A DNA stretch of 64,000 nucleotides from an uncultured Gemmatimonadaceae bacterium (GCA_963790305.1 CAWBOC010000009.1:800001-864000), one strand, 5' to 3'; positions 39,001 to 42,000 are shown, counted from the first letter of the stretch. A program made the numbers.

Positions 39001-42000
39001 GATCGCGCGCTTGCACTCCGCACTCGGCGAGGCGACGCCGTGAACGCCCTGATGCACAAAGGGCGCGACTCACTGAGTCGCGCCCTCGTCGTCCGAGCGG
39101 TGGGCGATTACGGCCGGCGGGCGGCGGTGTCGCGCAGACTGTCGCGCATCGTCGTGTCACGCATCATCGTATCCGCCGGGGCGGGCGCGGGTGCGACCTG
39201 CGTGGTCGTATCGGCGGTGTTGTCCGCGTCATTCGCCGTGCAGGCGGTGATGACAACCACAGCGGCAACGAGGGCCAGGCGCTTCATTTACGTTCTCCTT
39301 GTGGGGGGCCTTGGGGCTTGGTGTTCGTCCGGCCCGCGCTTGGCGATGCTCGGAGCGAGCGGCAAGTATTCTACGATACTCGGACGTAGTGTCAAGAGTG
39401 CGGAAACGTACCGAACCGTAAGAAACGCAAGCATTTCGGAGCCATCAGGAGGTCCGCTGTGCGCCTGAGCGCGCTCGCCGGCGCGCTCGGTGTGCCTCTT
39501 TCGGGGGCCGATCGGGAGATTACGGGCATTGCGCTCGACTCCCGCCAAGTGCAGCCGGGTCAACTCTTTGTCGCGATTCCCGGCGCCAATGCCGACGGAA
39601 CGCGCTTCATCCCCGACGCCCTCGCGCGCGGCGCCGTGGCGGTGTGCGCGGTACGCGCGTGGGATACCGTGCCCACGCTCGTCGTCCCCGATCCACGTGA
39701 GGCGCTCGCCCGCCTGGCGAGCGAATTCCACGGACATCCCGCACGCGACCTTCGCATGATCGGGATTACCGGATCGCTCGGGAAGACGTCTACTGCGCTC
39801 CTGCTCGAAACGATCGTCGGGACCGCGGGCGAGAAAGTCGGCGTCATCGGCTCGCTCGGGATTCGGTTCGAGGGCCACGTCGTCGAGACGGGAATGACGA
39901 CCCCCGAGGCCCCCTCCATCCATGGCTCGCTGCGCTACTTCGCGGCGCAAGGTGCGGGCACCGCGGTCATGGAGGTGACGTCGCACTCGATTCTGCTCAA
40001 GCGCGTCGACGGACTTCAGTACGACCTTGGCCTCCTGACGAACATCGTCCCGTACGAGCACCTCGAGTTCCATCCCACTCCCGAGCATTACGTCCGCACG
40101 AAGACGCGCTTCTTCGGCATGCTCAAGCCGGGCGCACCGCTCGTCGTCAACGACGACGATCCCACCGCCCGCGAGGTGAGCACCGGTCTCGATCGACCGG
40201 TCATCGGCGTTTCGCTTCGCGCGCGGGCGAGCGCGGCAGTGCACGTGGAGCGCGTTCGCATGGGGGTCGAGGGCTCGACGTTCGCGCTGCAAGTGCGGCG
40301 CCCGCTGCCGATGCTGGACGGCGGAGAGGTCGCCGCGCAGACGATTCCGCTGGCGCTTCCGATCCTTGGTCGGCAGCAGGTGGCAAACGCGGCTCTGGCG
40401 GCAACGGCCGCTCTCATCGCTGGCATTCCCGCCGAGACGATCGCGTTCGCGCTCACCGACGTGGAGCCAATGCACCGCCGCATGCACATCTTCTACGAGG
40501 ATGGGCCGGTGGTGATCGACGACACCGTCGGGAATCCGGAGAGCATCCGCGCCGTCTTCGAGGCCATCCGCTCGATCCCGCATCACAACCTCCGCGTCGC
40601 GTACGCGATTCGCGGCTCGCGTGGGACGGAGGTCAACGAGCGGAACGCCGAGGCGCTCGCGCGAGAGATCGAGCCGATCATCGCGACGCTGGTCGTGACC
40701 TCGAGCGAGGATCACGCGAGCGAGCGCGATCGCGTCGAGGACGATGAGCGTGAGGCGGTCCTGAAGACACTGGAGGCTCGTGGAGTGCCCTTCATCTACG
40801 AGCCGACGCTCGAGGGAGCAGTCACCCGTGCGCTACAGGACGCGGCTCGCGGGGATCTCGTCGCCCTTCTCGGCGCTCAGGGGATGGACAAGGGAGCAGA
40901 GATCGCGCGGAAGCTGCTGCCGCCGCCGGTGGATTAGGGGTCAGGAGTCAGGGATCGGGGGGGCTCAGGGTGGAGGTTCGAGGAGAGACGCTCGCGCACT
41001 CCTGGAACCACTTCCCTGACACCCCCTGACTCCTGACTCCTGACTCCTGATCCCTATATTGTTCAGCTATGGCTCCGACCATCGTCCGAGCGGCCTGCCC
41101 CCACGATTGCCCGGATACCTGCGCAATGCTGGTGACCGTCGAGGACGGCCGCGCCACCAAGGTCGCCGGCGATCCCGACCACCCCTTCACGCAGGGATTT
41201 CTCTGCACGAAGGTCAATCGCTACCTCGAGCGCACCTATCACCCCGAGCGTTTGCTTCGCCCGATGCGTCGCATCGGCCGCAAGGGAGACGGCCGCTTCG
41301 AGCCGATCTCGTGGGATGACGCCCTCGACGAGATTGCCGAGCGCCTGACGAGCATCGCGGGCTCGCCGGACGGTCCGCAGGCGATTCTGCCGTACTCGTA
41401 CGCGGGCACGATGGGCTACGTGCAGAGCGCATCGATGGACCGGCGCTTTTTCCATCTGCTCGGCGCCTCGAAGCTCGATCGCACCATCTGCTCGATGGCC
41501 GGCACGGTCGGGATGCGGATGACGGTCGGTGCGAACATTGGCGCGGACGGTGAAGGGCTGCCCGAGAGCGATTTCGTCCTCTTGTGGGGGACCAACACGC
41601 TCACGTCGAATCCGCACCTGTGGCCGTTCGTCCTTCAGGCACGCGCGAACGGGGCGTCGATCATCGCGATCGATCCGCTTCGCACGCGCACCGCCGCCCA
41701 GTGCGACGAATGGTTCGGCATTCGGCCCGGCACCGACGCGGCGCTCGCGCTGGGCATGATGCACGTGCTGTTCGCGGAGGGGATGGAGGACCAGGAGTTT
41801 CTGACGAACTACACGCTCGGTGAAGAGCTGCTGCGCGAGCGCGTCCGCGAGTACTCTCCGGCGCGCGTCGCGTCGATCACCGGCCTCGAGGAAGCACGCA
41901 TCATCGGCCTCGCCCTGCGGTACGGTCACTCGCGCGCGGCGTTCATTCGCGTCAACTACGGGCTGCAGCGGCACAAGGGCGGCGGAATGGCCGTCCGTAC

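Follow-up and report, generated by a model that had tools for sequence, protein, structure and literature searches.

How does a diderm bacterium that has lost the de novo synthesis of diaminopimelate (DAP) build the stem peptides of its wall, and what part might a second MurE play in this? The question is raised by a gene in the window, a 64,000-nucleotide stretch of one contig of an uncultured Gemmatimonadaceae bacterium (host genome G000). We consider that this second MurE would best be explained as a ligase adding ornithine (or lysine) at position 3 of the stem peptide, a reading that is predicted from sequence comparison and to which we assign a probability of about 0.5. The features of the locus, counted along the window, are as follows.

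39459..40937, + strand: second murE gene (P0001), 492 aa; member of a bacterial MurE subfamily whose C-domain is common to archaeal pMurE; stand-alone, outside the dcw cluster.
39459..39731, + strand: N-terminal MurE/F-type domain (Pfam PF01225 at residues 20-91; alignment to E. coli MurE), predicted by homology to bind UDP-MurNAc.
Residues 26-29 of the second MurE, in the N-terminal domain, + strand: LDSR motif, from alignment to E. coli MurE.
39765..40412, + strand: middle ATP-binding domain (Pfam PF08245 at residues 103-318).
39768-39788, + strand: P-loop TGSLGKT of the middle domain, from alignment.
40353..40913, + strand: pMurE-like amino-acid-binding part, residues 299-485 (NF053648; PDB 7tzi/6vr8; Foldseek; tree).
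40518..40538, + strand: DDTVGNP motif, marking the Gemmatimonadota/Acidobacteriota/Sporomusa subtype (alignment).
40605..40625, + strand: AIRGSRG motif, whose R385 and R388 align with two Arg of MurC.
40866..40889, + strand: LLGAQGMD motif, in the place of MurE AGKGHE.
38435..39043, + strand: DUF1802 gene upstream of the second murE; context, with no known link.
41069..43159, + strand: molybdopterin oxidoreductase gene downstream, beside the second murE in 11 of 90 compared loci.

The reading frame is intact, its G+C content matches the surroundings, and Pfam finds all three Mur ligase domains in the product; judged by its sequence, this is a real, functional, pMurE-like gene. Residues 1-298 are matched best by MurE models (PRK00139, E 4e-63), and pMurE is not among the 21 families listed at E<=0.001. 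For residues 299-492, the best model is pMurE (NF053648, E 8e-40; 1e-40 for residues 299-485), far above MurF, MurC and MurE. Among solved structures, the same residues match 7tzi (E 2e-27) and 6vr8/7ufp (E 2e-25), followed by MurC 9ir5 (5e-7) and then by E. coli MurE at 0.004 or worse. These results bear out the first-pass annotation in its description of a 492-residue frame with MurE-type N-terminal and middle domains and a pMurE-like C-terminal domain carrying AIRGSRG and LLGAQGMD. The AlphaFold model of the whole protein (pLDDT 96) is matched best by MurE structures (TM up to 0.86), and Foldseek ranks 7tzi/7ufp/6vr8 first and MurC second for the modelled C-domain.

Alignment of individual residues gave a similar division. 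In the middle domain, TTPE, E172, R182, H201/H205 and K215 match E. coli MurE residues, the E. coli counterparts kept being LDSR, TT, E183, R193, H211/H215 and K225 (Met1 counted); R182 and K215 are absent from the pMurE row of the alignment. The DDTVGNP motif is without the His found in DDFAHNP of pMurE, DDYxHHP of MurC and DYAH of MurE. Across 94 subfamily rows, the R385 position holds R or K in 93 and the R388 position R in 92, while G472-A473 match the GA of MurC. Three conserved acids have no MurC counterpart in the alignment: D424 (D/N in 92 of 94 rows), E430 (94 of 94) and D477 (D/N/E in 93, D itself in 84).

The closest relatives are named Gemmatimonadaceae and Gemmatimonadales, and the dcw cluster, with its own DNPR-bearing MurE, lies elsewhere on the contig. 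Some of the 11 oxidoreductase-adjacent loci come from dapB-bearing genomes, so the site is older than dapB loss. The neighbourhood was considered as a clue to the substrate and set aside, as clustering of the 90 loci revealed lineage-specific neighbours only. The window also contains a 59-aa ORF at 39108-39287 (- strand) whose product looks like a small lipoprotein, having a hydrophobic leader followed by Cys; a sigma-70 site close to consensus, TTGACA-16-TAGAAT (11/12), lies at 39395-39368 on the strand of this ORF and divergent from murE.

As a whole protein, the second MurE scores below the cut-offs for pMurE (NF053648, 139.9 bits versus 600, a cut-off passed in 31/31 sampled archaeal genomes), MurE (TIGR01085, 241.8 versus 257.3; PRK00139, 250 versus 476), Lys-adding staphylococcal-type MurE (PRK14022, 122 bits versus 536) and MurC (72.9 versus 335 bits). 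It has neither the DNPR and GKGHE motifs of DAP-adding MurE (EC 6.3.2.13) nor the DNPA of the staphylococcal type, and its MurE-type N-domain sets it apart from MurC and Mpl. The C-domain motifs and fold of pMurE are present apart from the His of DDFAH; the UDP-Glu-Ala/pseudomurein-cluster setting is absent, the host having a bacterial dcw cluster and the gene unrelated neighbours. With its MurE-type N and middle domains and their ATP- and dipeptide-binding residues, the protein would be a MurE in the broad sense, a predicted position-3 ligase. More closely, it belongs to a bacterial pMurE-related MurE subfamily, unnamed and defined in this analysis by MurE-type N/middle domains, a C-domain with DD, RGxRG, an invariant Glu and GxQGM[DN], and its grouping in the C-domain tree.

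At E up to 1e-10, a search with the C-part gave 249 clusters at 50% identity, most of them of full-length proteins of ~500 aa. In species-representative genomes, 379 stretches matching one motif pattern were confirmed; among the best 80 are Gemmatimonadota, Alkaliphilus, Sporomusa, Desulforudis, Acidobacteriota and one Methanobacteriaceae record. At least 13 of 60 evenly drawn Bacillota genomes carry the subfamily. Named relatives of the protein of G194, a Peptoniphilus-like genome, come from Peptoniphilus, Anaerosphaera, Parvimonas micra, Halobacillus, Psychrobacillus, Chryseomicrobium, Fredinandcohnia and Caldicellulosiruptor. Members occur in 24/51 genomes of the G194 family, and in 23/51 (one genome being left out of this check) the member is the only TIGR01085 match at E<=1e-40, which argues that the subfamily is a true position-3 ligase. 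The earlier statement that the C-domain matches no bacterial MurE thus holds among solved structures and fails among sequences, where hundreds of bacterial proteins carry the domain. Nor is an archaeal-type domain on a bacterial body special to this lineage, as had been proposed: the subfamily is an old bacterial one, with the archaeal C-domain nested inside it.

Three motif subtypes follow the DD: F[ACS]HNP in pMurE and Alkaliphilus, H[FY]AN in Peptoniphilus and Halobacillus, and TxxNP/TxxHP in the window protein, Acidobacteriota and Sporomusa. Some Bacillota (L120 and P0408; G206, G178) carry two subtypes at once besides a canonical MurE, which suggests that the subtypes take different substrates. 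Genomic settings also vary. In some Gemmatimonadota loci (L128, L101, L116, L082, L113) the second murE adjoins lysA and guaA. Among L115, L130 and related Clostridia loci, 12 have a member immediately after a gene for a PdaB-like polysaccharide deacetylase and 5 have one in the vicinity of a VanW-like gene, a hint of a wall-remodelling or sporulation role there. No description of the bacterial subfamily was found in the literature searched; the supplementary trees of Lupo et al. may already contain members, and Subedi et al. 2022 may discuss bacterial relatives.

The breadth of the subfamily bears on the origin of archaeal pMurE. In a C-domain tree (41 rows, 148 columns, LG+C20, with a long-branch warning), pMurE and the bacterial subfamily form one clade (95/94), sister to MurC (97/87), and only 1% of bootstrap trees unite the bacterial rows to the exclusion of the archaea. 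In the tree of the N and middle domains the bacterial subfamily groups with canonical MurE (90), and pMurE is long-stemmed and its position not settled. Free trees of this part do not put pMurE with the bacterial subfamily; forcing them together gave an lnL 6.1 higher (p-AU 0.69), a result that allows, and does not prove, descent of the whole pMurE gene from the subfamily. Monophyly of the subfamily on the N and middle domains alone has a support of 0.61 (FastTree), with no resolution under a mixture model, and the Peptoniphilus/Halobacillus (DDH[FY]AN) and Gemmatimonadota (DDTxG[NH]P) subtypes are not grouped together in the trees. The full-length profile match to pMurE was not counted, as the profile alignment contains archaeal rows. 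Since the combination of a MurE body and a MurC-like head is found across bacteria and the archaeal C-domains are nested within it, these sequence comparisons indicate that archaeal pMurE most likely derives from the bacterial MurE subfamily. A recent chimera, or transfer from archaea to Gemmatimonadota, was rejected, as the second MurE groups with Gemmatimonadota, Acidobacteriota and Bacillota copies over both parts. In Lupo et al. (bioRxiv 2022.11.30.518518; PMC11915815), the origin of mur-delta is given as unclear, with placement inside Bacillota MurE in two trees only, and the preprint describes mur-delta/pMurE as MurE-like at the N-terminus and MurC-like at the C-terminus; Subedi et al. 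2021 (PMC10117817) describe bacterial and archaeal ligases as not mixed. A living bacterial subfamily with the MurE/MurC make-up would offer a concrete donor of pMurE and make the question of its origin testable in cultured organisms.

Turning to the substrate, the alignments suggest that the subfamily protein very probably ligates, at position 3, a diamino acid that is not DAP. In the region of DNPR, the Asp position is kept (D/N in 92/94 rows) and the Asn and Arg are not. According to PMC3829189, Asp/Glu bind the amino group and Asn/Arg the carboxylate of DAP; by these rules the absence of Asn/Arg with retention of the conserved acids D424, E430 and D477 fits a basic side chain, though the alignment is gapped there, containing an 8-residue insert and placing D477 one position off E468, so that the residue mapping is uncertain. 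The first-pass annotation had proposed a non-DAP stem ligase, a part of its claim that stands up well as a prediction; lysine as the first choice does not, as no lysine route of its own was found for the genus and G000 has argJ, B, C and D for ornithine.

The substrate of pMurE itself is contested. It ligated Lys to UMP-Glu-Ala in vitro according to PMC12996149, whereas the preprint of Lupo et al. predicted L-Ala from structure. Applied to the second MurE, this prediction would mean that position 3 receives L-Ala, or some other small neutral amino acid, from a MurC-like site, yielding non-acceptor stems or an L-Ala3 wall. Such a substrate would suit a C-domain that is sister to MurC and in which R385/R388 and G472-A473 match MurC, and the resemblance of the two Arg and the GA motif to the L-Ala site of MurC does count against ornithine or lysine. 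We nevertheless regard L-Ala as improbable, given the in vitro ligation of Lys by pMurE, the conserved D424, E430 and D477 that MurC is without, and the many genomes in which the subfamily is the sole MurE and a cross-linking residue is needed.

Several carriers of the subfamily (Peptoniphilus, Parvimonas, Halobacillus, Psychrobacillus and Chryseomicrobium) belong to taxa whose wall peptide is of the ornithine type, with this residue at position 3. Side support for this link comes from PMC10868198, where the meso-DAP of H. campisalis is said to be 'unlike other Halobacillus', and from PMC9781867; passages of PMC3587942 and PMC7738495 yielded nothing on it. The literature searched gave no statement of wall type for Peptoniphilus, Parvimonas, Psychrobacillus or Gemmatimonadaceae. 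For a wall containing ornithine together with DAP, PMC5303756 on diderm hydrolysates provides a precedent in Opitutaceae. Against the ornithine/lysine reading, the ornithine-wall carriers are of a different subtype that does not group with that of the Gemmatimonadota. In the genus of the host, ArgJ is found in 4/4 genomes searched, G000 also having ArgB and ArgC/D/G/H, and G000 yielded no match for homocitrate/isopropylmalate synthase or LysW in a motif search. Ornithine is the only diamino acid for which a complete de novo route was found in the genus (argJ, B, C, D in G000), and this matter of supply adds weight to ornithine here.

The loss of DAP synthesis in the genus is real and covers the aspartate-semialdehyde trunk, as had been reported. 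dapB was matched in 0/9 genus genomes (5 of them >=90% complete), asd in 0/3 searched and homoserine dehydrogenase (hom) in 0/2 searched, G000 among them; lysC is present in 1/9, its sole instance being L371 (G313). The amino-acid-kinase matches of G000 look like PyrH, ArgB and carbamate kinase, and its semialdehyde-dehydrogenase match looks like ArgC. The region named for the syntenic site of the lost operon contains aroA, tyrA, cmk, rpsA, recN and unassigned genes, with no dap genes; relatives that have dapB carry asd flanked by a DapE-like gene and lysC, ~2.5 kb from dapB. Of the enzymes said to have been kept, DapF, LysA and the DNPR MurE of G000 are above their cut-offs, and the 'DapL-like' aminotransferase is below its own and occurs in dapB-bearing G038 too. 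The DapL-like gene (C9:140702-141349), ftsZ (C9:22390-23403) and murI (C6:124005-124665) appear to contain frameshifts in G000; since G060 has an intact aminotransferase gene, these are probably assembly errors.

DapF is kept in 20/20 dapB-less genomes examined and LysA in G000, which implies that DAP still flows. The main rival to the ornithine/lysine reading is therefore salvage of DAP alone, in which the dcw MurE would build all stems, DapF converting LL- to meso-DAP and LysA giving lysine, with the second MurE an accessory or conditional enzyme unrelated to the loss. The DNPR motif of the dcw MurE is found in 19/20 dapB-less genomes, the twentieth being truncated, and is intact in 16/16 of the dapB-less family sample and in 9/9 genus genomes, as salvage would have it. 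G000 has MurI, so that retention of DapF solely as a glutamate racemase, a role considered and rejected, is not needed there. Mpl is not among the 7 Mur-domain matches of G000, a point against salvage. Overall, we hold salvage as the sole solution to be possible, if somewhat doubtful. Far more doubtful is that the dcw MurE is fed by lanthionine or an unrecognised DAP route, the second MurE being incidental. The retained DNPR MurE, DapF, LysA and aminotransferase of the DapL neighbourhood would fit such a supply, as would the sole DHDPS-family protein of G000, which is sub-cut-off for DapA (163 versus 206 bits), as noted previously. That protein, however, is encoded among unrelated genes with no lysC or asd to feed DapA, and no lanthionine synthase was found (one PLP motif was probed).

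Related genomes present several further observations. The Asp/Glu racemase family is present in G000 and G060 and has no match in G003, G115 and G038 (3/5 family genomes examined), where DapF may supply D-Glu; near the second racemase match, no D-Asp bridge genes were apparent among the ORFs read. The dap operon of L216 (G096) consists of a DapE-like gene, asd and dapD, lysC and dapB being absent from between them, and the genome has no second MurE; this is an independent dap loss with no known replacement. L198 belongs to a reduced genome (G115, 1.8 Mb) without dapB, asd or the second MurE, whose dcw MurE has GKGPD for GKGHE.

The first-pass annotation had tied the second MurE to dapB loss by 12 of 12 genomes versus 0 of 13, and this coupling does not survive wider sampling. 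Searches with the C-domain were bimodal in 121 family genomes, 10 giving E under 1e-40 and the rest 5e-11 or weaker. The second MurE is found in 7/16 dapB-less versus 3/105 dapB-bearing genomes (counts that take in the unpublished G026 and G007; Fisher p 2e-5, kin not being independent). The other 9/16 dapB-less genomes are without it, and dapB-less lineages of this kind include the 100% complete G044, G058 and G115, as expected under salvage. Among 50 other carriers, taken from 80 named carrier loci after leaving out duplicates of sampled genomes and others, and including the unpublished G137, 46 have a dapB match (30 above cut-off), 11/14 Gemmatimonadaceae among them. On a tree built from seven dcw proteins of 78 genomes, which is enriched for carriers and omits two genomes with a poor MurE, dapB must change 9 times and the second MurE 10 times. 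In two places, both genes occur in the sisters of dapB-less carriers (G126-G130 beside G003/G062/G121; G076/G027 beside G005/G147), so that the second MurE is older than dapB loss there. Eight independent pairs changed the same way 0.8 times and in opposite ways 0.9 times, with no difference in 6.3 (sign-test p = 1, with little power); this lack of a tree-aware association again suits salvage. For combined loss of asd and dapB, pairs went the same way 2.1 times and never opposite (p 0.5), genomes outside the asd search being scored as asd-bearing; asd is still present in 5/20 dapB-less genomes. The coupling is thus weak, and dap loss is not in general accompanied by the second MurE. The idea that an archaeal-type lysine domain was gained or kept on a bacterial MurE specifically so that lysine could take the place of DAP in any lineage losing the dap pathway draws on the raw enrichment and on the asd and dapB pairs; as a general rule it is largely refuted, and we rate it very unlikely, as 46/50 carriers keep dapB, the gene predates the loss in two lineages, the subfamily is widespread in bacteria, and lysine itself would need import.

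Within the genus, the second MurE is present in 9/9 genomes and has a mean dN of 0.063 over 36 pairs, which are not independent, compared with 0.065 for MurF and 0.100 for the dcw MurE; it is the slower MurE in 36/36 pairs. dS is also higher for the dcw MurE (0.96 versus 0.68), so that dN/dS barely differs. The C-domain of the dcw MurE is its more conserved part (dN 0.061), and its DNPR is conserved. In other lineages the second MurE is faster than the dcw MurE in 13/14 pairs, and in the three dapB-less pairs among these it is not more constrained (ratio 1.7-2.1). These rates suggest that the second MurE became a core gene in this genus and that the dcw MurE was not dropped. Such core-like conservation fits a role in living without de novo DAP, and it weighs against salvage alone.

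We therefore return to ornithine or lysine as the preferred reading. An old, mainly Bacillota subfamily, whose N and middle domains are of MurE type and whose C-domain is related to MurC, would have been the source of archaeal pMurE, and Gemmatimonadota would have held one of its members as an accessory second MurE before any dap loss. An ornithine/lysine ligase older than the loss may have eased it. When the genus lost the aspartate-semialdehyde trunk, the second MurE would have become a core gene, building stems from home-made ornithine, while the dcw MurE would still take salvaged DAP when present; in the C-domain, the MurC-like Arg pair would hold the alpha-carboxylate. Taken together as one proposal, that this unnamed, widespread subfamily is the Orn/Lys ligase behind several Bacillota ornithine walls and the bacterial parent of pMurE, and that a soil diderm genus without the aspartate pathway switched to it, taking wall ornithine from the arginine pathway and using it by itself or in a mixture with scavenged DAP, is tentative. 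The more valuable part of the finding is that pMurE would gain a bacterial home and that the subfamily offers a candidate gene marker for non-DAP walls in Peptoniphilus, Parvimonas, Halobacillus and Psychrobacillus, whose copies often carry the annotation of a DAP ligase; in the Gemmatimonadota, the finding hints at a way for a diderm to give up DAP synthesis.

Compared with known systems, the second MurE is most like pMurE/Mur-delta of Methanobacteriales (6VR8, 7UFP, 7TZI) in its C-domain, sharing the fold, DDxxxNP, AIRGSRG, T..S.D...D.V...E and GAQGMD, and one supported C-domain clade. It differs in bacterial MurE-like N and middle domains that keep residues pMurE is without, in Gly for the His of DDFAH, and in its acceptor, which is probably UDP-MurNAc-dipeptide and not UDP-Glu-Ala. 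With canonical MurE (TIGR01085; E. coli 1E8C for DAP, S. aureus 4C12 for Lys) it shares the three-domain fold (TM 0.83-0.86) and, by alignment, the P-loop, the D-Glu-binding Arg and the carbamylation-site Lys; unlike canonical MurE, it is without DNPR/DNPA, GKGHE and DYAH, lies outside the dcw cluster, and has a C-domain that groups with MurC and pMurE. MurC's C-terminal domain is its sister in the C-domain tree and has the same DD motif, RxxR pair and GA loop, whereas the second MurE has an N-domain of MurE/F type, extra acidic residues, an 8-residue insert and, in this subtype, no His. Its full-length kin are the 'Mur ligase family protein' entries of Peptoniphilus, Parvimonas, Halobacillus, Psychrobacillus, Alkaliphilus and Sporomusa, often annotated by default as DAP ligases. 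The Peptoniphilus/Halobacillus subtype is distinguished by DDH[FY]AN, ATNGKT and AGCQGMD and is often the sole MurE, whereas the subtype in the window is a second copy beside a DNPR MurE.
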